Counted from the first letter of the stretch, positions 36,255 to 52,933 are shown. The stretch is DNA of 64,000 bases from Chloroflexota bacterium (GCA_040755495.1 JBFMAT010000005.1:35545-99544); one strand, 5' to 3'. The notes: generated by a model not told the origin, from the sequence alone. A program made the numbers and translations.

Positions 36255-37790
36255 TCAGCCGGTGGTCGCGGCCGCCTTCGGCTCCCGGACCGCCTTCGCG
36301 CTCACTGCGGGCTCCTCCGGAGGCGGCGGCCAGACGCCGTTGAGCCACGAGTCGATCGAGCGCGCGGCACGCTTGCCGTCGCCCATGGCGAGGATCACCG
36401 TGGCCGCGCCGCGGACGATGTCGCCGCCCGCGAACACGCCCGGCATGCTGGTCATCCCGTACTCGTCGGTGACCATGTAGCCCCACTCGTTGACCTCGAG
36501 CTCGGGCGCGCTGCCGGTGAGCAGCGGGTTGGCCTTGGTGCCGATGGCCACGACGACGAGGTCGCAGTCGATGACGAACTCGGAGCCCGCGATGGGCTTC
36601 GGGCGTCGGCGGCCGCTCGCGTCGGGCTCGCCCAGCTCCATGCGCTGGACCCGCAGGCCGGTGACCCAGCGGTTCTCGTCGGCCAGCACCTCGACCGGGG
36701 CCGCCAGCAGCTCGAACCGGACGCCCTCCTGTTCGGCGTGGTGGACCTCCTCGGCACGGGCCGGCAGCTCGTCGCGCGAGCGGCGGTAGACGATTGTCGC
36801 CTCCGACGCCCCGAGGCGGCGCGCCGTCCGGACCGAGTCCATCGCGACGTTGCCGCCGCCCACCACGACCACTCGCTGGCCGTGGAGGATGGGCGTCGCG
36901 GACTCGGGGTTCCAGGCACCCATGAGGTTGACGCGGGTGAGGTACTCGTTGGCCGAGTAGACGCCCTTGAAGTTCTCCCCCGGGACGTTCATGAACACCG
37001 GCAGTCCCGCGCCGACGGCCAGGAACAGGGCATCGAACTCCTCGCGCAGCTCGGGGACCGTGTAGGTCCGGCCGATGATCGCGTCGAGCTCGATCTTGAC
37101 GCCCTCGGACACCAGGCGGTCGACCTCGGACTGGACGATGTCCTTGGGCAGCCGGAACTCCGGGATGCCGTAGATCAGGACGCCGCCGGGCGCGTGGAAC
37201 GCCTCGAACACCGTGACGTCGTGGCCCTTCCGGGCGAGCTCGCCGGCGGCCGTCAGCCCGGCCGGCCCGGAACCCACGATGCCGATCCTGCGGCCGGTCA
37301 GGGGCTGCCGGAGGTGCGGCACGGCGCCCGGGTTGTCCATCGCCCAGTCCGCGACGTAGCGCTCGAGGTAGCCGATCGCGACGGGGTTGCCCTTGCGGGC
37401 GCGGACGCACACGCCCTCGCACTGCGTCTCCTGGGGGCAGACGCGCCCGGTGACGCAGGGCAGCGCGTTGTCGCCCAGCAGGCTCTCGGCCGCACCCGCC
37501 ATGTCGCCGTCGCGCAGGTGGGCGATGAAGTTCGGGATGTTGACCCGGACCGGGCAGCCGTCCACGCAGAACGGCTTGGGGCACTGCAGGCAGCGCTCGG
37601 CCTCCAGCATCGCGAGCTGGAAGGTGAGCCCGAGGTTGACCTCGCGGAAGTTGTGGGCGCGGATGTCGCCGTCCTGCTCGGGCATGGCGACCCGGTCGAT
37701 CGCCATCCGCTCCTTGTTGGTCAGCGGCACCTTCGGCTGGGCGGGCTCGACGGGCTCGTCGGCCGGCGCCGGGGACGCGGGCTCGGTCAT
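36255..37790 (-). CDS. NfnB/SudA-like NADPH-dependent oxidoreductase (GltD-like)
   Basis: EAERCLQC...C...CP, TGRVCPQETQCEG, GSGPAGL, GGGNVAMD, GVFAGGD; no gltB nearby. Confidence 0.9.
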   Translation of the reverse strand: MTEPASPAPADEPVEPAQPKVPLTNKERMAIDRVAMPEQDGDIRAHNFREVNLGLTFQLAMLEAERCLQCPKPFCVDGCPVRVNIPNFIAHLRDGDMAGAAESLLGDNALPCVTGRVCPQETQCEGVCVRARKGNPVAIGYLERYVADWAMDNPGAVPHLRQPLTGRRIGIVGSGPAGLTAAGELARKGHDVTVFEAFHAPGGVLIYGIPEFRLPKDIVQSEVDRLVSEGVKIELDAIIGRTYTVPELREEFDALFLAVGAGLPVFMNVPGENFKGVYSANEYLTRVNLMGAWNPESATPILHGQRVVVVGGGNVAMDSVRTARRLGASEATIVYRRSRDELPARAEEVHHAEQEGVRFELLAAPVEVLADENRWVTGLRVQRMELGEPDASGRRRPKPIAGSEFVIDCDLVVVAIGTKANPLLTGSAPELEVNEWGYMVTDEYGMTSMPGVFAGGDIVRGAATVILAMGDGKRAARSIDSWLNGVWPPPPEEPAVSAKAVREPKAAATTG

Positions 37791-38626
37791 GCCTTCACCT
37801 CGGTCGTCGCGCAGGCGCCCAGCTTGTCCAGGGCCTGCGCTTCGAAGCTTCGATAGGTCGTCAGGCGGTCCGCCAGCTCCGCGAAGTTGACCTGGTGGCC
37901 GTCGAACTCCGGGCCGTCCACGCAGGCGTACTTCGTCTCGCCACCGATCGTGACTCGGCAGCCGCCGCACATCCCCGTGCCGTCGACCATGATCGCGTTG
38001 AGCGACACGGTCGTGGGCACGGCGTAGGGGAGCGTGAGGTTCGACACCGCCTTCATCATCGGCACCGGACCCACCGCGTACACGGCGTCTACCCCGCCGG
38101 CGTCGAGCAGGTCCTTGAGCGCCTCGGTCACGAAGCCCGGGCGGCCGTAGGACCCGTCGTCCGTGCAGGCGACCACGTCGCCGCAGGTCCGCAGCTCGTC
38201 CTCGAGGATCACCCACTCCCTCGACCGGCCGCCGATCACGCTGGTGACCTTCACGCCGCGGCGCGCCAGCTCTCGGGCGATCGGCAGGATCACTGCCGTG
38301 CCCACGCCACCGCCGACGCACACCGCGTGGCCGTGCTCGATGAGCTCCGTGGCCTGGCCCAGCGGCCCCGCGACGTCCTGGATCGCCTCGCCAGCCTGGA
38401 GCGCGCACAGCTCGGTGGTGCTGGCGCCGATCGCCTGGATCATCAGCGTGATGGTGCCGGCGGCGGGGTCCGTGTCCGCGATGGTCAGCGGGATCCGCTC
38501 CGCGCCCGGTCCCTTGCGCACGATGACGAACTGGCCCGGCTTGCGGACCTTGGCGATGCGGGCCGCCTCGACCACGAGGCGGACGACGTTGGGGGAGAGC
38601 TGCTCACGCTCGACGACCGGATGCAT
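37787..38626 (-). CDS. NfnA/SudB-like FAD/[2Fe-2S] subunit
   Basis: KPGQFVIV, ERIPLTIAD, GGGVGTA, MVDGTGMCGGCRV...CVDGPEFDG. Confidence 0.92.
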   Translation of the reverse strand: MHPVVEREQLSPNVVRLVVEAARIAKVRKPGQFVIVRKGPGAERIPLTIADTDPAAGTITLMIQAIGASTTELCALQAGEAIQDVAGPLGQATELIEHGHAVCVGGGVGTAVILPIARELARRGVKVTSVIGGRSREWVILEDELRTCGDVVACTDDGSYGRPGFVTEALKDLLDAGGVDAVYAVGPVPMMKAVSNLTLPYAVPTTVSLNAIMVDGTGMCGGCRVTIGGETKYACVDGPEFDGHQVNFAELADRLTTYRSFEAQALDKLGACATTEVKA

Positions 38627-38922
38627 GCGACCTCTTGGCTGGTGCCGGTGGTGCTCCGATCGTCGCCCAGGCGGGGTGGCGGCGTTACGTGCCACCGGCC
38701 CCGAGCCGCGGTCCGAAGGTCACCTGCGGGGCGGGCCGACCGGGGTGCACGGGATGACAGGGCCGTGACGGTGGGTCGGCACGTGGCCATCGTAGACCCG
38801 GGACGGACGTTCGCGCGGTGGTCCGCCGCGGGTCGAGCGGCCAATGGCCGCCTCGGCGTCCTTGCCCGGATCCCCGCGCTACGCGTCGTTCGTCGCTCGT
38901 CCCCTGTCGCAGTCGCGCCACC

Positions 38923-39043
38923 CGTGCGTACGGCGCAGGGAGTCCGTGCCGCCGAGTCGTCGCCGTGCGTGGCACGCACGGCCGGAGCCGATTCCGGGTG
39001 CCAAGTGCCATTCGCGGCGCCGTCATCGTGCGTGGGACGCACG
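38923..39043. repeat. Second cluster of CGTGCG-N5-CGCACG palindromes (three copies)
   Basis: Copies at 38923 (one mismatch), 38964 and 39027; spacings 41/63; linker similar to that at 24093-24115. Confidence 0.8.
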
Positions 39044-39274
39044 GCCGGCGCGCGACCAGCCGGGGCCGGCGCGCGTGCTCGCTCAGCCGGCCGGGGGCGA
39101 CCGCCGGGGCCTTGCCCTTCGGCCAGTAGCCACGAAGGTGTCTCATGCTATCTCCTTGTGTGCCAACTGAACGGGAACCGCAGGCTTGGTGCCCGCCGAG
39201 CCGCTGCGCGACAATCGAAAGACCGCACGAAGACCGCAGTCGCGGGCCCCGAGCGGTCGAGCAGGAGAACCGCT

Positions 39275-39547
39275 GTGGCAGACCGATCCGATGTCGTTCG
39301 GCTGCCTGCTGTCGGCCCGCTTGTTGACGACGTTGGCTACTTCGAGTCCCTGGTACAAGATCTGCGCTTCGTTGAAACAGACCGAGGTGATACCCCATTC
39401 GTTCACGCGGCGACAGGTTGTTCGTCCGGGTGCGGCTGCAGTAGTGCGTCTCGTATCCTCACGACAGCACATCCATCAGCCAGACCTTGCCGGGTCGCGG
39501 CAGACACTGTGCAGGATGTGCTGCGCAGGGAGGAGAGGGCACGGTAG
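39275..39547 (+). CDS. Unannotated 90-aa ORF, first gene of the defence operon
   Basis: AGGAG at 39263, GTG at 39275; its TAG overlaps the helicase GTG (TAGTG); contains CSSGCGC. Confidence 0.6.
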   Translation: MADRSDVVRLPAVGPLVDDVGYFESLVQDLRFVETDRGDTPFVHAATGCSSGCGCSSASRILTTAHPSARPCRVAADTVQDVLRREERAR

Positions 39548-42500
39548 TGCAACCGGGGGACATCGCTTCAGGGGGTGGGCGGCCGCGCTCGTTGACGCCC
39601 GCTGAGGCGTATGAGCACATCAAGGAGTCCGTAGCCCAATACCTCGAGACCCAGTACCGGATCTCGAACCGGTTGGTGACGGAGGAGCGGGCTCGGTTGC
39701 TGCGTGAGCCAGGGACAATTGCTCAGGTCCCGTTCATCGAGGCGACGCCTGCATTTCCGACCGCGCACAAGCTGGCTGAGCTTGAGCGCCTCTATCCCGA
39801 GAGTGTTCCGGCTGGAATAGCCGAGCTAGTTCAGCACGGGGTGCCAGTCGACCGCTTCGCCCTGTACCAGCATCAGGAGGCAGCACTCTTGGCCGCAAGC
39901 GGGTCACGGCCCAACCTGCTTGTAGCCACGGGAACGGGCTCGGGCAAGACGGAGGCCTTCCTGCTGCCGATCCTGGCCGACATCCTCCGCGAGGCATCCG
40001 ATTGGCCCGCGCCAATAGCCGTTGAGCGCAGAGGGCAGTACGACCCGCGCCAGGGCTGGCTGAGCTCACGGCGGCATGAGGCGAGGCCAGCCGCGGTTCG
40101 CGCGATTGTGCTGTACCCGATGAACGCCCTGGTAAACGACCAGTTGTCGCGGCTGCGCCGCATCCTCGCTCGAGGTGAGTCTCCGGACTGGCAGCGTCGC
40201 AACCTCAACGGCAACGTCGTTCGTTTCGGCATGTACACGGGGCTGAGCCGACCTACAGGCCCATGGACGGTGAAGTGGCGCCGCGACAAGTACTTTCAGT
40301 ACGAAACCAAGGTCGATGCCGAGTGGCAGGCGCTCAGCGAGAGATTGAGGGCGACAGGCGGGTGGCCGCGGCCGGACGGCCCCGAGATGATCTGCCGCTG
40401 GGACATGCAACTCGCGCCGCCGGACATTCTGGTGACCAACTACTCGATGCTCGAGTACATGATGATTCGACCGATCGAGTCTGGCGTGTTCACCACCACA
40501 GCTGATTGGCTGGCGAGCGACCGCGCACATCACCGCCTGACATTGGTGGTCGATGAGGCTCACACCTACACGGGCGCCAAGGGAACCGAGGTCGCTCACC
40601 TCATCCGGCGTCTTCGTGAGCGTCTCGGGATTACCTCGAGCCCGCATCAGCTCCGGACAATTGCCACCACGGCATCAGTGCCAGACCACCCAGACGCCGA
40701 CGAGTCGCTGCTGCGCTTCGTTGGCGATCTCTCAGGAGCACGTTCCGACTCCTTCAGCCTCATCAAGCTTCCTCCAGCCGACCCGCTGCCGGATCCGGGG
40801 CCGGCGACTGGCACTGAAATCGATGCGTGGGCTCGATTCCACGAATCCTTCGACCTCGTGGAGCCAATGCCCGCAGTCGAAAGGCTCGTGCGCGACCTTG
40901 ACCTCGGGGAGGCTGACCGGACGCTCGATCCTCAGGTAGCCCTGTACAACGCCCTCGAGCGGGATCAGCGGATCAAGTGGTTCCGATCCCGAACCGCTCG
41001 TCGCGCGACTTTGCTCAGCGACCTCAGCCTCGAGGCCTTTGGCGATACCCTCAGCGAGGCGCAGCGGGATGCAGCGGCGGCGGGTGTGCTGGCAGCTGGG
41101 AGCTACGCAAGGGCTTCCGATCTCGCCGATACGCCGCCCCTCCTCTCGGTGAGAGTTCACGCGTTCTTTCGTGGTATCGCTGGCATCTGGGCGTGCCTCA
41201 ACCCCAACTGTCGTTTTGCCGAGCCCGCGGGTACGCGTCCCGTCGGAAGAATCTTCACGGAGCGCCGCGTGTGGTGCGACTGCGGCGCGAGAGTCCTAGA
41301 GGCATTCTCCTGCCGCAAATGTGGCCTGCTCTTCCTTGGTGGCATACCAGACTCTCAACAGGGCAGCCTGTGGCCTTGGACTGACGACTTCACAGGAGAC
41401 GGCCAGGACCTTGGCGCTTACGCCATCTTCGGCGTCGAAAGACCCCACCCGTCGGAGATGCCCTCATTCCGCTCGATCCTAACGACGCTTCCATCGCACC
41501 CCGGCGAGATGGACGTGCGGGAGGTATGGGAGGTCGCGCCTGCAACCGACTCGAACGGGCGGCAACTCAGCCCCTTCCCGTCACAGTGCCCCCGTTGCCG
41601 CAACTATCGCCAGTTTGGGGTGCAAGGGCCCAACGTGCGTGAGGTGGTCGAGCCCCTTCGAACAAAGGGACCACGAACCTTCTCGATCATCGTGGAGGAT
41701 GGGTTCAGGGTGCAGCCTCGATCGGCAGACGAGGGCTCGCCAAACCATGGGAGGAAGGCGCTGCTCTTCAGCGACTCGCGACCTGAGGCCGCGACGCTCG
41801 CTGCAGACCTGCGGCGCGACCATCGGAACGATCTCTTCCGCCAGCTGCTCTACCGAGCGTTGTACGTCTGTGCTCTGTGCGACGGCACCGGCTCGCTAGA
41901 ACAGGTGGAGGGGTACGTCATTGGACAAGCCACCTCGCCTGTTATCGGGCCCTGCAACGCATGCGACGGTTCAGGGATCCTTCCGTCGCCAGCGGCGCTG
42001 CAGTACGCCGAGCTCCGGGCGCGAGTCACGAGACTCCAGCTGGAGCGGGGGATCAATCCGAGCGGGGACGACATCCGGGACTTCTTCGCGCAGGCCGAGG
42101 CCGGCAATCCGGCGATTCAGCAGGCAACGCAGGTCTGGTTCGACGTGAACCTGAGACGGGAGATCTCGGAGGAGGAGTTCTCGCTTGGTCCCTTAGGGCT
42201 CGCTGAGTGGACGATCCAGCTGCCGGAGACGACCGGTGCTCTTGCACCGCTAACCGAGCCCGAAACCAAGCAGTTCATTCGCATCATCGCCCGGATCCTG
42301 GCGACCGAGGACATCCTGCTGCCGCCCGAGCCGGTCGAGCCGTGGGGCTGGCCAAGGGACATCGTTCGGGAGTGGGAGCGACAGGTCATCTACCCCGGCA
42401 ACGCCAAGCAGGGTGCTGCAATCCCATACAACTTGGAGCCCCGCAGAAAACTCGGGAGGTACGTCCGGGCTGTCGTCGCTGCACTCGTCGCCGAAGGGCG

Positions 42501-45000
42501 ACTGCCGAACCAAGCCGCCGGCGACCAGTGGCTCCGCGATCAACACTGGCCGTTGTGGGCCGCGCTGCGCGGGTTCGGCGTGCTCCAGCCGGCCGGAGCC
42601 AAGATCAATGGCCAGACTCCGCACGGCATCCGGATCGACTCCTTCGCTCTGTCACCGATCGGACCACTCGTCTGGCGCTGTGGCGAATGCGGGTATGTGA
42701 GTCCCGAGGCATTGCTCGATGTGTGCCCGCGCTGTGGTCAGCAAACAGCGCGGCTGCAGCCCGGCGACGACATCCGCAACTTCTATCGGCGCAGCGTTCT
42801 AGCAGCCCGGCCCGGTCCGCCATTCGATGACCCCCACCCGCTCCGCTCGATCGAGCACAGCGCTCAGATCCCCGGGGCCGAAGCTCGTGACCTAGAGCGG
42901 TGGTTCCAGGACTTCTTCCGGGATGGCGAGAATGCGCTCGACCACCGTATCGACGTGCTCTCCGTGACCACGACTATGGAGATGGGCATAGACATCGGCA
43001 GTCTGCTCACTGTTGGGCTTCGGAACGTTCCGCCAACCGTGGCCAACTACCAGCAGCGGGCTGGCCGCGCCGGGCGCCGCGGAAGTTCGATTGCCACCGT
43101 GCTGTCGTTCGCCCAGCAACGAAGCCACGACCAGTACTACTTCAGCCGCCCGCCCGAGATAGTCAGCCGGCCGCCCCGTGTTCCTGTCCTTTACCTCGCG
43201 AATTCGGTGATCGCGAGACGGCACGTGCGAGCGCTCGCACTTGAGCAGTTCTTCCGATCGTTCCTGCCAGGCGGTGGGACGGCATCCCTCTTCTCGGCGT
43301 GGGGCAAGGTCGGCGACTTCATCACGCGGCAGGGTGTGCCATCGCTGATCAGGTTCCTGGACGCTAACTTCGACTGGATGCTCGAACGTGGGGTATCCGT
43401 AGTCGACGCGACCTTTGGGGGGGTCGTGGCGGACTGGCTCAAGGAACTGCCCGGCGAGGTCGGAATCGCGATCGGCGCGACACCGTCCAGCGATGAGCTT
43501 CTGGATGCGCTATTGCAGTCGGGCCTCCTCCCGAAGTACGCATTCCCAGTGGACGTTGTCAGCTTGTCGATGCCGAGCTTCGGCGCATCGGACGATGACG
43601 ACTTTCCCAGCTCGGACACGATGCAGCGCGACCTCAAGATCGCCCTGTCGGAATACGCACCCGGGGCCGAGGTCATCAAGGGGACGTTTCCCGAGACGTT
43701 CGTGTACAAGAGCGCCGCATTGCACGATCCGTACGGTGTTGTTGGGGACTTCCGGCCCACCGGCTCACTGCTCGAGTGTCAGGATTGCCAAGCGATCTCG
43801 CTCGCAGGCGCGGATGCCCAAGGCGGTGTATGCGGCGAATGCGGTGGACTAAGCGTGCTGCCACTGCCATACCTCATCCCCAAGGGCTTCAGTGTCGATG
43901 CAGCGCTGCCAGGCGCAGGCCGCCAGCGGTACGACGGCGGCGGACGAGAGCGCAGTGGCGAGGTGCTTCCTGCGCGCCTGCTTCTCGGGGGAAGCTCATT
44001 CGCCCTTGGCGACCCTACTTCCTTCGCTCCCGCTCTCTACACATACGTCCGCAGCGGCCAGTTGTTCATGTGCAACAAGGGGCCGGATAGAGACTTCCCG
44101 GGCTTCCTTGTTTGTCCTCACTGCGGCCGCTGGCTTGACGCCGATAACCTCGGGACGCACACGTTCCCCGCTGACGTCCCCCCGCACTGGGGCCAGAGGC
44201 GCGGCCCGCGCGCCGGTTCGATGTGCCCGAACACCACCGACTTCGCGAATCAGCCGATCCTCGGGCACACCTTCCACTCGGAGGTAATCCTCCTTGGGGT
44301 GGATCTCCCGACGGATCTGGATGCCCCTTTCGCGGCACCTTCGGGACGGGCCGTCTGGTATTCCTTCGGAACCCTGGTCGCCAACGCGGCCGCTCGGGTA
44401 CTCCAGGTTGATCCCGGCGAGCTCCAAGTCGGAGTGCGCCCGGTGAGGCGTCCGGGTGGTCGTCTGCACGGCGAGGTCTTCATCTACGACGACGTCCCGG
44501 GAGGCGCTGGCTACGCACGCGGGGTCGGGCACAACCTCGATGAAGTTCTCCGTGTTGCGCGCGATCTCGCCCATGCATGTCCCAACCAGGACTGCCCTGG
44601 AGCGTGCTATCACTGCCTTCTCGAGTACGGGAACCAGAGACAGCACCCCCTCCTCGACAGACGCCTCGGCGGAGCGGTCCTGGACTTTCTCATCGAGGGC
44701 GTCAGGCCGGTGGTGCCCGAGGAGGTGGAAGACCGGGCAGCTGCGTCGTTGGCAGCGTACGCTCGGACTAGCTGGCGGGTGTCCGGGCCGGTCGCAGCGG
44801 GGACCACGCGTTTCGCCCTTGTGCTCGAGGACTCGGCGGGTGGTCGTATCGGACTCTGGGTGATTGATCCTCTCTCGGCTCGGCCCTCAGCGGCCGAGCG
44901 GCAACAGCTACTTGCCGCCTCGGGGATGCGTCCCGCTGTCCAGACGACGTTTGACCTTGACCGACGCCCGTTCTGGGTGATGAACAACCTGATCACATGA
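39547..45000 (+). CDS. DEAD/DEAH-box helicase with multiple Zn fingers and C-terminal DUF1998 (DruE-like)
   Basis: LYQHQ, ATGTGSGKTE, LYPMNALVNDQ, PPDILVTNYSML, DEAH, EHSAQ, TTTMEMGIDIG, NYQQRAGRAGRR; DUF1998 YDDVPGGAGY...CPGACYHCLLEYGNQ. Confidence 0.92.
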   Translation: MQPGDIASGGGRPRSLTPAEAYEHIKESVAQYLETQYRISNRLVTEERARLLREPGTIAQVPFIEATPAFPTAHKLAELERLYPESVPAGIAELVQHGVPVDRFALYQHQEAALLAASGSRPNLLVATGTGSGKTEAFLLPILADILREASDWPAPIAVERRGQYDPRQGWLSSRRHEARPAAVRAIVLYPMNALVNDQLSRLRRILARGESPDWQRRNLNGNVVRFGMYTGLSRPTGPWTVKWRRDKYFQYETKVDAEWQALSERLRATGGWPRPDGPEMICRWDMQLAPPDILVTNYSMLEYMMIRPIESGVFTTTADWLASDRAHHRLTLVVDEAHTYTGAKGTEVAHLIRRLRERLGITSSPHQLRTIATTASVPDHPDADESLLRFVGDLSGARSDSFSLIKLPPADPLPDPGPATGTEIDAWARFHESFDLVEPMPAVERLVRDLDLGEADRTLDPQVALYNALERDQRIKWFRSRTARRATLLSDLSLEAFGDTLSEAQRDAAAAGVLAAGSYARASDLADTPPLLSVRVHAFFRGIAGIWACLNPNCRFAEPAGTRPVGRIFTERRVWCDCGARVLEAFSCRKCGLLFLGGIPDSQQGSLWPWTDDFTGDGQDLGAYAIFGVERPHPSEMPSFRSILTTLPSHPGEMDVREVWEVAPATDSNGRQLSPFPSQCPRCRNYRQFGVQGPNVREVVEPLRTKGPRTFSIIVEDGFRVQPRSADEGSPNHGRKALLFSDSRPEAATLAADLRRDHRNDLFRQLLYRALYVCALCDGTGSLEQVEGYVIGQATSPVIGPCNACDGSGILPSPAALQYAELRARVTRLQLERGINPSGDDIRDFFAQAEAGNPAIQQATQVWFDVNLRREISEEEFSLGPLGLAEWTIQLPETTGALAPLTEPETKQFIRIIARILATEDILLPPEPVEPWGWPRDIVREWERQVIYPGNAKQGAAIPYNLEPRRKLGRYVRAVVAALVAEGRLPNQAAGDQWLRDQHWPLWAALRGFGVLQPAGAKINGQTPHGIRIDSFALSPIGPLVWRCGECGYVSPEALLDVCPRCGQQTARLQPGDDIRNFYRRSVLAARPGPPFDDPHPLRSIEHSAQIPGAEARDLERWFQDFFRDGENALDHRIDVLSVTTTMEMGIDIGSLLTVGLRNVPPTVANYQQRAGRAGRRGSSIATVLSFAQQRSHDQYYFSRPPEIVSRPPRVPVLYLANSVIARRHVRALALEQFFRSFLPGGGTASLFSAWGKVGDFITRQGVPSLIRFLDANFDWMLERGVSVVDATFGGVVADWLKELPGEVGIAIGATPSSDELLDALLQSGLLPKYAFPVDVVSLSMPSFGASDDDDFPSSDTMQRDLKIALSEYAPGAEVIKGTFPETFVYKSAALHDPYGVVGDFRPTGSLLECQDCQAISLAGADAQGGVCGECGGLSVLPLPYLIPKGFSVDAALPGAGRQRYDGGGRERSGEVLPARLLLGGSSFALGDPTSFAPALYTYVRSGQLFMCNKGPDRDFPGFLVCPHCGRWLDADNLGTHTFPADVPPHWGQRRGPRAGSMCPNTTDFANQPILGHTFHSEVILLGVDLPTDLDAPFAAPSGRAVWYSFGTLVANAAARVLQVDPGELQVGVRPVRRPGGRLHGEVFIYDDVPGGAGYARGVGHNLDEVLRVARDLAHACPNQDCPGACYHCLLEYGNQRQHPLLDRRLGGAVLDFLIEGVRPVVPEEVEDRAAASLAAYARTSWRVSGPVAAGTTRFALVLEDSAGGRIGLWVIDPLSARPSAAERQQLLAASGMRPAVQTTFDLDRRPFWVMNNLIT

Positions 45001-46130
45001 GCGCGGCCACAGACTGGACGGTCAAGCGCGCAGAGTGGGCCCCTCGGTCGCGGCCATCCCCGCCACTTGGGGTGACATCAGCGGCCGTCGCTCGGTCATG
45101 CGGGCTGCGCCTGCTCTTCGAGCGATCGGACGCATATGCGCGGCGCCTGTCCTTTGCGGCCCGCATAGGGACGGCATTCCACCGGACGATGGAACGTCTC
45201 TCCGAGGAAGGTGTGCCCGCGAATGCGGCCGAGGCTGCCTTGATCGCACAGGTGGTATTTGACGACGAGCTCGCGGCACAAGCTCTGGCTGCCGACACGG
45301 CGTTTCGAGAAGGATCACTGCCCCGGGATGAGCGGAGGGTGCAACTGGCGAAGGAGGCGGCCGTCGCTGAGGCGGTTCGCATGGCACGCAATCCGCAGAC
45401 CTCGACGCCAACCGAAACGGCAGCGGGCGGCGTACCAGGGGCTGGGGATGGTACCTGGGTCGAGGTACCGGTCGCCTCAGCTGACGGGTGGCTCAGAGGG
45501 CGCATCGACCGGATAGAGCGACATGCCGGCAGGCTTCGACTCGTGGACTACAAGTCCACTCTTCGTGCGGACTTGCCCGAACGGTACGAGCGCCAAGTCA
45601 AGGTGTACGCAGCTATGTGGGAGCAGACCTTTGGCTTCTGGCCGAACGAGGCCGCGATCGTCTACCCCCTCCTCGGCACCGAAGCCACGCTTGAGCTCAA
45701 TCCGGAGGAGTGCACCGAACTCGCAAATGACGACTCCGCGGTGCTTCGTGAGGTCTGCACGCGTGGAGCACCTCGAGATCACGCGCGGCCCGGCGATGTG
45801 TGCAAGGCATGCGAGTTCCGGCCATGGTGCGAGCCGTTCTGGGCGGCTCAGGTAAGCGACGCAAATACGGAGGCAGACGTGCTGGAGCGCGCCTACCTCG
45901 GCTTCGAAGGGACTGTCGTTGAGGTGCTAGACGGCCCAGGCTTCGTGCGTGGCAGCGTCACGTGGCGTGGACGGCCTGTCAGCTTCATCGCCGATCCCGA
46001 ACGGTTTCCGCAACTTCGGTCTGCTCGTCCGGGAATGAACCTCCGATTCCTGGAGTGGCGGCTCAGGGGTCAACGGCACGCTCCACAGGCGTTTGCGTCA
46101 GACACCGGGGAACTGTTCCTTGTCGACTGA
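44997..46130 (+). CDS. PD-(D/E)XK nuclease, Cas4/RecB-like
   Basis: GTAFH, LRGRIDRI...VDYKS, QVKVYA, C-x2-C-x5-C (CKACEFRPWC) plus an N-terminal Cys; ATGA overlap with the helicase. Confidence 0.88.
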   Translation: MSAATDWTVKRAEWAPRSRPSPPLGVTSAAVARSCGLRLLFERSDAYARRLSFAARIGTAFHRTMERLSEEGVPANAAEAALIAQVVFDDELAAQALAADTAFREGSLPRDERRVQLAKEAAVAEAVRMARNPQTSTPTETAAGGVPGAGDGTWVEVPVASADGWLRGRIDRIERHAGRLRLVDYKSTLRADLPERYERQVKVYAAMWEQTFGFWPNEAAIVYPLLGTEATLELNPEECTELANDDSAVLREVCTRGAPRDHARPGDVCKACEFRPWCEPFWAAQVSDANTEADVLERAYLGFEGTVVEVLDGPGFVRGSVTWRGRPVSFIADPERFPQLRSARPGMNLRFLEWRLRGQRHAPQAFASDTGELFLVD

Positions 46131-46134
46131 TGAG

Positions 46135-47499
46135 GTGCCGCCGACCGCCGCCACGGGCCGCACCCGTGAGCTCGTCGACTCGATCCGCACCGCGATGGAC
46201 GAGCACCTCGCGGGCCTGGGGCTGTCCGGGGCGACCGGATTGCAGTCGACGAAGGAGGCTGTGCGGCAGAGCCACGCGGCCCAACGCCAAGAGACCCTCG
46301 CACGGGAGAAGCCGGCGCTCCAAGCCCGCTGGCGCGAACTCATGTCCTGGTTCGCCAGCGGCAGCGATGTCAACCCATCCACCGTGGCGCCTGCTCTGGT
46401 CCAGGTATCGAGTGGCGACGAGACCTCGCTGGTCTTCCGCCTGGCGACGTTGCTCTGGTCCGTCCCGGTCTCGCGCGGGTATGGGCGCAGGATGCGGTAC
46501 CTCGTGGTCGATGAAAGCAATGGGCACCTGATCGGTGTGCTCGCGCTCGGCGACCCGGTGTTCAACCTCCGGGTCCGAGACACTCACATTGGCTGGACTG
46601 TCGATGAACGGCGGGACCGACTGGTCAACATCCTCGACGCGTTCGTCGTGGGAGCAGTGCCTCCATACACTCAGCTCATGGGCGGGAAGCTTGTGGCGAG
46701 TCTGCTCGCGTCGCGAGAGGTCTCGTCGGACTTTGATCGACGATACGGCGAGAGCGTGGGGATCATCAGCGGGAAGGCCAAGACAGCGAGGCTGGCGCTC
46801 GTCACGGTGACGAGTGCGCTCGGTCGATCGTCGATCTACAACCGATTGCGGCTTCCGGGTCGCGTGGAGCTGCAATCCGTCGGCCTTACCGAGGGCTGGG
46901 GCCACTTTCACGTCCCGGAAGCGGTGTTTGCGGACATGCGACGCCTGCTGGAGCTCGAGGGACACCCGTACGCGTCAGGACACCAATACGGAACGGGCCC
47001 GAACTGGCGGCTTAGGGTGATCCGGGCATCGCTCATCAGAGTCGGGTTGGACCCAGCGTTGCTCCGGCACGGAATAGCTCGCGAAGTGTTCGTCATGCCA
47101 CTTGCGCAGAATTGGCGGCGCTACCTCAAGGCGATTGACGACCGGGCGGTCATCGACCGGCCATCCGCGCGCGACATTGGGCTGGCGGCAAGGACTCGGT
47201 GGATTGAGCCTCGCGCGGCTCGAACCCCCGAAGCGCTGCGCTGGTCCCGCGACGACCTTGCCGGTGACTTTGAGTCCATGTTCGCAAGTCCCGAGCAGGG
47301 CTCGGGCGAGCAGGTCGCGGCCACCATCGACGCAACGGCTGAGCTCTCGCAGAACCCCTCGCCGAACTCGCCAACTGTACAAGGGCCATCACCGCTGCAT
47401 GCGGAACTCATACCCGAAGAACCCATGGGGCCGGGGGCGACCGGATCCAGCCTGCCGGAGGTGGCCTGGATCCCTCGCATCGGGACGAGCACAGGATGA
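46135..47499 (+). CDS. DUF4338 / Druantia DruA-like protein
   Basis: WSVPVSRGYGRRMRYLV, IGVLALGDPVFNLRVRD.HIGW, GAVPPYTQLMGGKLVA, TSALGRSSIYNR; GTG 46135 (alternative TTG 46093). Confidence 0.8.
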   Translation: MPPTAATGRTRELVDSIRTAMDEHLAGLGLSGATGLQSTKEAVRQSHAAQRQETLAREKPALQARWRELMSWFASGSDVNPSTVAPALVQVSSGDETSLVFRLATLLWSVPVSRGYGRRMRYLVVDESNGHLIGVLALGDPVFNLRVRDTHIGWTVDERRDRLVNILDAFVVGAVPPYTQLMGGKLVASLLASREVSSDFDRRYGESVGIISGKAKTARLALVTVTSALGRSSIYNRLRLPGRVELQSVGLTEGWGHFHVPEAVFADMRRLLELEGHPYASGHQYGTGPNWRLRVIRASLIRVGLDPALLRHGIAREVFVMPLAQNWRRYLKAIDDRAVIDRPSARDIGLAARTRWIEPRAARTPEALRWSRDDLAGDFESMFASPEQGSGEQVAATIDATAELSQNPSPNSPTVQGPSPLHAELIPEEPMGPGATGSSLPEVAWIPRIGTSTG

Positions 47500-47511
47500 G
47501 AGACCGGCGGC

Positions 47512-48534
47512 ATGCCTGACGTACGTGTTGCCCTGGACACCAATGTCTGGGCGTTTCTCACTGATCGAGACGAGGCGCAGAGCTTCGCGCGCTGGTGTCG
47601 GTCGCGCGGCATCACTGTTGTTGTCCCGCCTGCAACCCTGCTCGAGATCTCTCGCACGAAGGATCCCATCCGCCGGGCGCGAATCCTCGCGGCCGCCACA
47701 ACTCCGCCTCGGATCCACCCGCGTACCGAGGCCGCCGAGGAGTCCGCTGAGTTCATCGAGGAGATCCGGCGACTGCGGCCGTCGTGGATCCGGGAGAAGC
47801 CCATCCACGTCGCTGACTTCGAGAGCCTGGATAGGCTCTGGACGCGAAGAGTCCCACGCTTCGCGAAGTACAAGCCGGATGTCCTCGGCGAGATGACTCG
47901 CACGATGGAGTCAGGGCGCCTCGAGTATGAGCAGCAAGCGGTGGTGGACTCCCAACGCTCGCGCCAAGACGCACTCCGCGCGCAAGGACGCGAGGTGAAC
48001 CTCGGCAACCTACACGACACGTGGGTTTCGCCTGCCGACGGATCCGACCCGGCCTATTGGACGCCCTTGCCTCTGAGCGGCCGCATCGAGGAGTGGCGAT
48101 TCCAGAATGCCGTAGTCTTCTGGTCTACCCTCCAGCAGCCGGCGACATACGGCAGGACGCTCGGCCGTGACACGACCCGAGCGGACTGGATTGAGCCATT
48201 CGTCGACCTCGGAGCGCTACGTCGAGACCACGCCGACTTCAACCGGCTCTGGTTCGAGGAAATCGCTCCCGAACGCGTGCTGCGCAACTGGCTCCGATGG
48301 GCGCTGCAGCTCGCCCAAGTTAGGTTCCGCCTGGGTCGCGGGAACGCGACCGATGAGCAGCAGGCCGCATACCTACCCGACTGCGACGTATACGCGACCG
48401 CCGACCACCGGTTCCACCTCGCACTCGAAGCGGTATGTCGGCAGGCGCCGAGGTCGGTTGCCAAGGTGGTCTATGTCGATCGGAATGCAAGCTCGGCTGT
48501 TGCGGCCATCGAAGTCGCGATCAGTGCGGTTTGA
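47512..48534 (+). CDS. PIN-like domain protein with a large insertion
   Basis: N-terminal VALDTNVW and TLLEI; C-terminal DEQQAAYLPDCDVYATADHRF. Confidence 0.65.
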   Translation: MPDVRVALDTNVWAFLTDRDEAQSFARWCRSRGITVVVPPATLLEISRTKDPIRRARILAAATTPPRIHPRTEAAEESAEFIEEIRRLRPSWIREKPIHVADFESLDRLWTRRVPRFAKYKPDVLGEMTRTMESGRLEYEQQAVVDSQRSRQDALRAQGREVNLGNLHDTWVSPADGSDPAYWTPLPLSGRIEEWRFQNAVVFWSTLQQPATYGRTLGRDTTRADWIEPFVDLGALRRDHADFNRLWFEEIAPERVLRNWLRWALQLAQVRFRLGRGNATDEQQAAYLPDCDVYATADHRFHLALEAVCRQAPRSVAKVVYVDRNASSAVAAIEVAISAV

Positions 48535-48655
48535 CTGTCGCCAACCCCGAAGACATGAGGGGCTGGCGCATGGCGATGCCATACTGGGGTCACGCCAACC
48601 CACGATGATCGGCGGGTGACACCGACGGTGCTCGGCACTGCTTGCGGCTCACCGG

Positions 48656-48760
48656 ACCTATCCAGAGTGCCCGAGAGTCCCGGCTCGATGACGGCACGGC
48701 AACCCGCGCACGTCCCAGGTGCCGAAGGTGCCCCTTCCGGGATCGATAGGTGAGGGATCC
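48656..48760 (+). ncRNA. SAM-I clan riboswitch (likely SAM-I/IV-like variant)
   Basis: P1 ACCTATC/GATAGGT, ATCCAGAG, P2 with GAGAG...CTCGATGA kink-turn-like motif, GGCAACC...AAGGTGCC P3; P3 loop GTCCC is complementary to downstream GGGAT near the RBS. Confidence 0.8.
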
Positions 48761-48762
48761 CG

Positions 48763-48846
48763 ATGACCAGCGAGACCGCCGACCTCGTCGACGCACCCCC
48801 TCGGCTGCTCCAGCTCCGCCGCACAAACGCCCGCACTAAGCGGTGA
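48763..48846 (+). pseudogene. 27-codon ORF under the SAM riboswitch, possibly a truncated gene remnant
   Basis: ATG 12 nt after P1; MTSETADLVDAPPRLLQLRRTNARTKR*; runs into the 3' end of the convergent fnr-like gene. Confidence 0.35.
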
Positions 48847-49642
48847 TTGTGTTCGGTTTCCCCTTCGGCCAGTACAGCTCCTTCTTGACGTGGAACTCGG
48901 GGAAGCCGCGGTCCATCAGCGCCCGCTCCACGTTGAGGATCATGTCCGGGTTGCCGCAGATGTAGACGACGGTCCGGTCGGGCCGCAGCCCGTGCTCGCG
49001 ACAGACGTCCATGATCACCTGCTCGGCGCGCCCCACGCGCCCCGCCCAGCCGGCGTTGCGCGGGTCCGCGGGCCGCGAGATCGTGGGCACGTAGCGCAAC
49101 CGGTAGGCGGGGTCCTGCTGCCACGCCTCCAGCTCCCGGCGGTAGCCCAGCTCGTCGGCGAACGAGCAGCCGTTGAGCAGCACCGTCTTGCGCGGCTTCC
49201 CCTGGGCCATCGTCTCGCGGATCATCGAGATGAACGGCGCGATGCCGGTCCCGGTCGACACGTACAGGTGGGTCCGGTCGTCGTCGGGCTCGAGCATGAA
49301 CTTGCCCTTGGGTCCGATCATCCGCATCCGGTGCCCCACCGGCAGCCGCCACAGCGCGGTCGTGAACCGGATCACCGGCACGTGGCGCACGAACAGCTCG
49401 TAGCCCTCGGTGTTCGCGACGGACGGCGCGGACGCCACGGAGTACGGCCGTTGGAGCATCTTGCCGTCGGTGACGACGCCGGTGGTCATGTACTGCCCGG
49501 GCTCGAACGGCGTGGCCGCGCCGTCGAACTTGACCCAGAAGCAGGCGAGGTCGTGGGTCAGGTCCTCGCGCCGGACGAGGGTCGCGTTGTACGACTCGGC
49601 ATCGGCCTCGATGACCCGTGGGTCGTCGTGGTGATTGGTCAC
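48836..49642 (-). CDS. Ferredoxin-NADP+ reductase (Fpr-like)
   Basis: FEPGQY, RPYSVAS, GPKGKF, STGTGIAPFISM, VYICGNPDMI. Confidence 0.92.
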   Translation of the reverse strand: MTNHHDDPRVIEADAESYNATLVRREDLTHDLACFWVKFDGAATPFEPGQYMTTGVVTDGKMLQRPYSVASAPSVANTEGYELFVRHVPVIRFTTALWRLPVGHRMRMIGPKGKFMLEPDDDRTHLYVSTGTGIAPFISMIRETMAQGKPRKTVLLNGCSFADELGYRRELEAWQQDPAYRLRYVPTISRPADPRNAGWAGRVGRAEQVIMDVCREHGLRPDRTVVYICGNPDMILNVERALMDRGFPEFHVKKELYWPKGKPNTITA

Positions 49643-50149
49643 GGCATGGCTCCCGGAAGCTACGCGACGTGGTGCACTCAGCGGCGGCGGACTCCCGTGA
49701 GTGTACTGCCGGCCGCGTGCCGGACCGGAGTCCGTGGTGCCAGCCGGACATCGGGACTCACAGTCTCGAGGTACCGGACACCCCGGCCCGGCGCTCGACC
49801 GCCAGTCCTGTGGGCGACCATCGAGCGCCCCGACAGGCGGCACGCCCGGTCGGGGACTGGACGCTGGGTCCCGTACTGAGCAGGGTGCGGCCAGCGTTGG
49901 TGACTGGCAGTCCGGCGCGGGCCCCTGCGCGTATCTCGGGGGTCGCGACGATGGCGACGGGCGGTCCGGCCCGGTTGCGCACGGCCGGCCGGCCCCCGCG
50001 GACGGGCACTTCGGGGCCCGCGCGGCAACCCATCCGCAACCCGGGTCCGCGCGGGTGGCGGCGTACAATCGCCACGTTTCCCAAGAGGTGCCTCGCGGGC
50101 CGCGTCCCCACGGCCGCCCGCCGTTGTCGAGTCAAGGAGCCCCTGCACG

Positions 50150-52933
<2,784 letters not shown>

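Follow-up and report, generated by a model that had tools for sequence, protein, structure and literature searches.

Type I Druantia reportedly ranks among the defence systems with the broadest action. Its composition, reportedly set out by Doron et al. in 2018, is DruABCDE. Type II has DruM, DruF and DruG. Druantia types I to IV, or types I to III with III-A and III-B as subtypes, are recognised in the literature; type IV is defined by DruF/DruL (PMC8565338), and the PADLOC definition of type I requires all five core genes. Mechanistic dissection has so far dealt only with the two-gene type III (2026 preprints), whose DruE binds exposed single-stranded DNA (ssDNA) or junctions and unwinds 3'-to-5', and whose DruH, depending on the preprint, either licenses DruE as a 3' exonuclease or binds and senses ssDNA. 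Passages of PMC12458937 describe an inactivated Vsr-like C-terminal domain in type I and type II DruE, and state that helicases of the YprA family typically have a nuclease as a fused part or in a gene just downstream. Here we analyse a 64,000-nucleotide (nt) stretch of DNA from a Chloroflexota bacterium (GCA_040755495.1, JBFMAT010000005.1:35545-99544; hereafter the window), in which a locus at 39275-48534, counted from the first letter of the window, combines DruE and DruA with a Cas4-like nuclease.

A first-pass annotation had read this locus as a Druantia-like defence operon of five genes: a small open reading frame (ORF), a DruE-like helicase with a DUF1998 domain, a Cas4-like nuclease, DruA (DUF4338) and a PIN-like protein. 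That observation was largely right, as four of the five genes, their junctions and the low-GC island that carries them are real. We told genuine genes from the spurious ORFs of this high-GC genome by the phasing of GC content at third codon positions (GC3). A coding signature with a GC3 of 0.70-0.78 was found for four plus-strand genes, at 39547-45000 (DruE), 44997-46130 (nuclease), 46135-47499 (DruA) and 47512-48534 (PIN-like). The junction at 39547 is TAG/GTG with one base in common, the DruE stop and the nuclease start overlap in an ATGA at 44997-45000, and gaps of 4 nt (46131-46134) and 12 nt (47500-47511) separate DruA from the nuclease and the PIN-like gene from DruA, respectively, so that the common orientation and tight spacing held at all four coordinates. 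The proposal of a recurrent Druantia variant that departs from the canonical types and has a Cas4-like nuclease was also right in kind: the DruE, nuclease and DruA families were confirmed, the three genes occur together in more than 50 loci elsewhere, and DruB, DruC and DruD were found neither in the window nor as a full set in 90 loci.

The extent of the conserved unit became apparent from a survey of other loci. A profile of the nuclease detected 9 loci in a collection with one genome per species and 80 in a metagenome collection, 89 in total, and the neighbouring genes in these loci were tested by tblastn with the window proteins. Of the 66 testable loci, 64 have DruE as the gene immediately upstream of the nuclease, and DruA adjoins the DruE-nuclease pair in 51 of the 52 that were resolvable. 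The order DruA-DruE-nuclease accounts for 27 of these 52 and the order DruE-nuclease-DruA, as in the window, for 21; in 3 more DruA is convergent and just downstream, and in 1 it is missing. Placing the helicase first, initially regarded as a defining trait, is therefore not one, given the majority of loci with DruA in front. Meiothermus (Deinococcota) is among the hosts, as are many Chloroflexota and Solirubrobacteraceae (Actinomycetota), and the remaining neighbours of the trio vary from locus to locus. The gene set on which the annotation had staked its case thus does recur elsewhere, as a trio, in several phyla. Judged from these gene neighbourhoods, the conserved unit is the trio of DruE, nuclease and DruA and not the five-gene operon that had been proposed. 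The same four genes were found only in a sister cassette (loci L004 and L005), where they are 82-90% identical; homology between the window and L004 covers 39509-47320 and 47494-48536, exactly the four genes.

The helicase gene (39547-45000, plus strand) encodes a DruE-like superfamily 2 (SF2) protein of the YprA/MrfA family, 1,817 amino acids long. Its start codon is the GTG at 39547, preceded by a GGAGGAG ribosome-binding site at 39529-39535, in agreement with the 1,817-residue gene call in L004. The assignment made at first pass was upheld by Pfam (DEAD, 4.7e-16; Helicase_C, 9e-7; MZB/DUF1998, 3.4e-15) and by PADLOC, where every DruE model matches at 313-923 bits, led by DruE1 (923 bits, 1.3e-277), DruE4 (801) and DruE2 (795). 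Numbered from the GTG, the Walker A motif GSGKT (131-135), the DEAH box (336-339) and motif VI, QQRAGRAGR (1169-1177), are intact, and several CxxC zinc modules are present together with an MZB/DUF1998 domain that has kept the MZB cysteines. The protein thus shows the hallmark of Druantia, a large DruE in which an SF2 DEAD/DEAH core is joined by an MZB/DUF1998 zinc domain. Among solved structures, the nearest are two helicases of ~2,000 residues (9wae and 9tu7), followed by MrfA/YprA. No conserved nuclease catalytic triad was found in the C-terminal domain of 23 non-redundant trio DruEs, which is consistent with the inactivated Vsr domain that passages of PMC12458937 attribute to type I and type II DruE, and a search of this domain against PDB sequences returned spurious matches only. 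The very tail of the protein carries the sequence FDLxRRPFW (44950-44985, residues ~1802-1810), which is invariant in the same 23 trio DruEs and not present in canonical type I DruE. We regard it as a candidate motif for docking the nuclease, whose gene follows directly.

The nuclease (44997-46130, plus strand, 377 amino acids) is a PD-(D/E)xK enzyme of the Cas4/AddB type with a predicted four-cysteine Fe-S cluster. Its identity as a Cas4-like nuclease was confirmed by matches to PDDEXK_1 (7e-23) and Cas_Cas4 (2e-5) in Pfam and by the conserved residues; NCBIfam gave weak matches to Cas4, AddB and AddA. The motifs are D171, D184-Y-K186 and Q200..Y204, and the cysteines are C35, C269, C272 and C278, that is, one N-terminal cysteine plus CxxCx5C. 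D171, D184, K186, Q200, Y204, C269, C272 and C278 do not vary among 34 homologs of 37-80% identity, at least 90% of which also keep C35. We take this residue pattern to be the signature of Cas4/AddB Fe-S nucleases. The protein falls short of Cas4 proper (TIGR00372, 31.6 bits vs a cut-off of 65), its neighbours are DruE and DruA, no match to cas gene families was found among the island proteins, and a C-terminal domain of ~90 amino acids is specific to the family.

DruA (46135-47499, plus strand) was recognised correctly as a DUF4338 protein, with a match to PF14236 at 6.8e-86 and to PADLOC DruA1 at 1.6e-143. An AlphaFold model (mean predicted local distance difference test score, pLDDT, 80.6) suggests a GNAT-like fold: nearly all of its top 40 Foldseek matches in the PDB are GNAT or acyl-homoserine lactone synthase folds, individually weak (best E 0.05, probability 0.90), and a conserved LLGGK follows the strand at residues 166-174. 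Y178, K185 and H257 are invariant residues near the predicted GNAT loop. DUF4338 has been described as a GNAT-like domain (PMC10853773). Conservation of DruA stops near 47320, and the final ~58 codons (47320-47499) are non-conserved and disordered, with pLDDT below 50. The tail is not present in L004, whose stop is equivalent to ~47325, and it is probably the product of read-through after a stop loss or an indel.

We compared the locus with three canonical type I references, on the Pseudomonas putida plasmid pKF715A, the Ralstonia plasmid pUW163a and the Nitrosococcus plasmid pNWAT01. The DruB, DruC and DruD proteins of these loci had no tblastn match at E<=1e-3 in the whole window, and models of DruB/C/D, which match the canonical proteins at 386-902 bits, did not match any island protein. 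PADLOC models of DruF, DruG, DruH, DruL and DruM likewise gave no match at E<=0.01 to the five island proteins. The annotation had recognised no DruB/C/D/F/G/H/M and had called the locus non-canonical on that ground; both statements stand, as DruE and DruA are present and DruB/C/D were not found in the window. Across 90 trio loci, no DruB, DruC or DruD was detected apart from one weak DruB-like gene, in L063.

DruA is about 46-49% identical to the three canonical type I DruA proteins. The window DruE shares 29-32% identity with canonical DruE, whereas trio DruEs are at least 57% identical among themselves. In PADLOC, a canonical DruE scores 2,332 bits with DruE1 and 570-650 with DruE2 and DruE4; trio DruEs score 923-998 and 795-855, respectively. 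Because of this score pattern and these identities, the trio DruE looks like a lineage of its own, about equidistant from those of types I, II and IV. Like type I, the trio has DruA and also a DruE whose overall architecture is the same, DruE1 being its best-scoring model. Unlike type I, it is without DruB, DruC and DruD, has a Cas4-like nuclease after DruE instead, and is arranged with either DruE or DruA in front and the nuclease nearly always behind the helicase. With type III (DruH-DruE) it shares a DNA-targeting helicase at its centre, where the partner, DruH (a nuclease or ssDNA-binding protein), cooperates with DruE at junctions of single- and double-stranded DNA. It differs from type III in having no DruH, in a DruE without C-terminal nuclease domains of the phospholipase D (PLD) type, in a nuclease that is a separate Cas4-like protein, and in the presence of DruA.

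The PADLOC family closest to the nuclease is DruK (PDLC00059/60, a PD-(D/E)XK nuclease), which is matched by 34 of 34 members, but at ~70 bits (best E 1.8e-20), indicating a related but different family; a system definition of DruK was not found in the PADLOC papers or the literature searched. In a broader sense, the trio resembles Hachiman HamAB, DISARM DrmABC, MrfAB, AddAB/AdnAB and Cas4, where a superfamily 1 or SF2 motor hands DNA to a PD-(D/E)xK, PLD or DnaQ nuclease, and its nuclease appears to share the Fe-S PD-(D/E)xK chemistry of Cas4 and AddB. It is set apart from all of these by a partner set that includes DruA and by a nuclease below the TIGR00372 cut-off. No description of DruA and DruE together with a PD-(D/E)xK nuclease was found in the literature searched, and the trio is apparently an undescribed Druantia variant there.

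Two of the surveyed loci deserve separate mention. In L010, from a Chloroflexia metagenome-assembled genome (265-18085), a tyrosine integrase, DruE and the nuclease are followed by a DpdE/BrxHII-like SNF2 helicase and a DEAD-box helicase that replace DruA, a gene order resembling ARMADA; this is the one resolvable locus in which DruA is missing. In L063 (3699-5528), the sole DruB-like gene among trio loci (PADLOC DruB1, 79.5 bits) follows DruA, and the locus is possibly an intermediate form linking the trio with canonical type I.

The low-GC island is a true and recent insertion. GC content is ~75% in the window and drops to ~65% at 39-49 kb with sharp edges between flanks of 70-80%, as the first-pass annotation had noticed. 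Exactly at both GC breaks lie 17-nt direct repeats that match at 16 of 17 positions: the left copy, TTGCCCTTCGGCCAGTA (39112-39128), is the same as the empty-site sequence, and the right copy, TTCCCCTTCGGCCAGTA (48858-48874), has one mismatch and falls among the final codons of the reductase gene (48836-50068). In shuffled flanks, an equal or better repeat match arose 16 times in 2,000. The island itself (39129-48857) consists of a 418-nt leader, the four genes and a 323-nt trailer, without an integrase or other recombinase, and the insertion, taken with one copy of the repeat, measures 9,746 bp. Metagenomes of soil, sediment and bioreactors yielded contigs of related organisms that cover both flanks, with a depth of nearly zero across 39.2-48.8 kb. 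The empty site was recovered on a contig of 1,957 nt (run X5) and on shorter ones (X4 and X1), which pass from 39129 into the sequence after 48874 with a single repeat. The insertion replaced the final codons of the reductase gene, whose last six codons and stop are now island-derived (YWPKGK of the host followed by PNTITA and the stop), and in the empty-site relatives the gene continues differently. There was no support for reading the stretch on the left side of the left repeat as the reductase's displaced, still-coding 3' end, as that frame has no coding signature and no nearby stop. The precise empty site makes this a clean case in which a defence cassette, lacking its own integrase, has entered a housekeeping gene at the 3' end. 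A scan of the leader found no sigma-70-like promoter with a promoter set that lacks actinobacterial types, and no tRNA genes were found in the window.

Signs of mobility accompany the trio elsewhere. A large serine recombinase is encoded 4.6 kb downstream of the L004 cassette. On plasmid pMtWR-220 of Meiothermus taiwanensis WR-220 (L096, 1943-13082), the trio lies between inverted repeats of 1,122 bp that are 99.6% identical and carry transposase genes, and looks like a composite transposon; its order is DruE-nuclease-DruA, and the nuclease gene is intact, though not in the distributed gene table.

The fourth gene of the island (47512-48534, plus strand) encodes a protein of 340 amino acids that is probably PIN-like, as judged from its family. 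Acidic residues lie at the N-terminus (D9 and E45) and at the C-terminus (D281, D290, D292 and D298), with a tryptophan-rich helical insertion of ~230 amino acids in between; D9, E45, D281 and D298 are conserved in a family so rare that it comprises 21 clusters in 5.8 billion proteins. Pfam PIN matches 12 of 19 family members (best 2.2e-5), with the N-terminal half of the profile only. The PIN-like identity assigned at first pass is probable, but the window protein itself stays below threshold (16.2-18 bits vs 23.6). Cutting out the insertion in silico gave no full PIN match, only that same N-terminal half, and a confident model (pLDDT 87.3) found nothing significant by Foldseek in PDB and BFVD. 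VapC-type PIN toxins share the N-terminal LDTNVW strand and the conserved acidic residues, the Pfam PIN matches of the family point the same way, and the annotation of one relative reads VapC family toxin. Unlike VapC, the window protein has its PIN core split by the insertion, is 340 residues in length, lies under the Pfam threshold without a significant fold match, and has no adjoining antitoxin-like gene, DruA being directly upstream.

The PIN-like gene had also been counted as a component of the system. This we rejected on gene neighbourhoods: by tblastn it was found in none of the 89 distant trio loci, and the relatives that Streptomyces, Amycolatopsis and a mobile-element island carry are solitary genes, with no Dru gene nearby. 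The nearest distant relative (46% identity) is encoded on a metagenome contig from ENA (L003, 8489-11047), within a mobile island with an integrase, toxin-antitoxin-like pairs of the Gp49/helix-turn-helix kind and type I restriction-modification fragments. Its gene comes right behind an HTH_3 gene, a position that hints at an independent defence or toxin-antitoxin-like role of the PIN-like family.

The small ORF at 39275-39547 (plus strand), the proposed first gene of the operon, was likewise rejected. It is the 3' end of a 550-amino-acid ORF whose first 800 nt run antisense to the genuine gene 37790-38695, and its GC3 (0.58) is lower than its GC content at first positions (0.70). Searches of Pfam, PADLOC and NCBIfam gave no match, nor did tblastn against 94 related loci. 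It also lies outside the DNA common to the window and L004, where homology begins only at 39509. Coding signature, family searches and conservation all failed to support it as an operon member.

The reading that we favour, with some confidence, is that the insertion is a horizontally acquired defence island made of two separable modules, a three-gene Druantia variant (39547-47499) and an independent PIN-like nuclease gene (47512-48534). The first module would combine a divergent DruE, a translationally coupled Fe-S nuclease of the Cas4/AddB type and DruA, with the nuclease in the place of DruB/C/D. By analogy with type III, DruE would load on exposed ssDNA or on junctions of single- and double-stranded DNA in the phage genome and unwind them with ATP. 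Its C-terminal nuclease-like domain appears inactive, and the separate Cas4-like exonuclease would therefore degrade the unwound strand, DruE and nuclease together resembling a helicase-nuclease machine such as AddAB or Hachiman. DruA may serve as a regulatory or sensing subunit, possibly through acyl transfer. The biochemical activities, the physical complex and the defence phenotype of the trio are inferred here from such analogies. The second module would be a single-gene PIN-like nuclease that hitch-hikes on the cassette only in the lineage of the window and L004. We see an even chance that DruA, the divergent DruE and the Cas4-like Fe-S nuclease form a self-sufficient, unclassified Druantia type, a minimal relative of type I in which the nuclease does the job of DruBCD.

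Several points weigh against this reading. The PIN-like gene follows DruA by 12-44 nt in both the window and L004 and has moved with the cassette, and a functional link between it and the trio may exist within this lineage. Canonical type I DruEs are themselves diverse, those of Nitrosococcus and Pseudomonas being 34% identical, which makes a separate lineage of the trio DruE provisional. For DruA, assignment to GNAT leans on the weak single Foldseek scores given above, a profile of the nuclease family had no significant match to any solved structure among PDB sequences, and a search for sequencing runs that contain the island found none.

The joint movement of the four genuine genes between the window and L004, and their common orientation and close spacing, would also suit one functional five-gene operon in which the PIN protein is an integral abortive-infection RNase. 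We consider this improbable, given that the small ORF fails all coding and conservation tests and that no other trio locus has the PIN-like gene, whose relatives stand alone. Could the trio instead be non-functional debris, a decayed canonical type I system without druBCD beside an unrelated nuclease gene? The ~49% identity of its DruA to canonical type I DruA and the preference of its helicase for the DruE1 model would fit such an origin. But the ORFs are intact and the catalytic residues invariant in more than 50 loci across phyla, the nuclease directly follows DruE in nearly every testable locus, and the trio DruEs form a tight clade of their own, all of which makes decay barely credible.

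A role in DNA repair, in the manner of MrfAB or AddAB/AdnAB and not directed against phage, is suggested by the weak similarity of the nuclease to AddB and AddA and by repair helicases of the YprA/MrfA family that are paired with a downstream exonuclease, according to passages of PMC12458937. This is quite improbable for a locus that is a mobile insertion missing from close relatives, and whose counterparts are patchily distributed, lie beside integrases and, in one case, sit within what looks like a composite transposon on a plasmid; DruA and the domain set of DruE are, moreover, hallmarks of the defence branch. It is also unlikely that the trio discriminates self from non-self by an epigenetic mark, with a restriction-like logic, and not by DNA structure. 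GNAT enzymes use acyl-CoA as a cofactor, not S-adenosylmethionine (SAM). No methyltransferase domain was found in the island proteins with Pfam, PADLOC and NCBIfam, and the SAM riboswitch in the island, an orphan that might otherwise speak for such a logic, is not common to the sister cassette L004. What argues for it is the predicted transferase fold of DruA and a preprint (10.1101/2024.04.14.589459) reporting that N6-methyladenine patterns change in the presence of type I Druantia, a system without any recognisable methylase.

If the trio is such a self-sufficient type, it would be the simplest available system in which to learn the role of DruA (DUF4338, GNAT-like) and the way in which type I-like systems kill phage, and at ~8 kb it is small enough for cloning and mutation. 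A natural form of DruA and DruE with a nuclease in place of DruBCD suggests that DruBCD may supply an effector or DNA-processing function, and the trio isolates DruA as the conserved partner of its helicase lineage. It also extends the pattern of a YprA/MrfA motor with a fused or downstream nuclease to a Cas4-like Fe-S nuclease. Because the type I definition requires five genes, we infer that current detection rules would miss the trio or call it 'other'.

The surroundings of the island are housekeeping genes. On the left, both on the minus strand, lie genes for a GltD-like oxidoreductase (36258-37784) and for a DHODB-type Fe-S/NAD-binding protein (37790-38695). On the right lie the ferredoxin-reductase-like gene already mentioned (48836-50068, minus strand) and a plus-strand gene for pyruvate phosphate dikinase (50150-52933). 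The island trailer contains the SAM-I riboswitch aptamer (48655-48752, plus strand), a full-length match to RF00162 at 52.4 bits (Rfam gathering threshold 44.4) with a degenerate P3 stem that has four non-canonical pairs. Its 3' side holds only a Shine-Dalgarno-like GAGGGA and a 27-codon ORF (48763-48846) that ends 11 nt before the island edge. The riboswitch was not present in related populations or in L004, and it is probably an orphan that came along from its donor context. Adjoining the island on its left, the host intergenic region carries a 39-nt element twice (38950-38988 and 39013-39051), the copies being 82% identical, 63 nt apart, and each containing the palindrome CGTGCGTGGCACGCACG. 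In related populations, a shorter and different sequence replaces the intergenic stretch that bears these elements.

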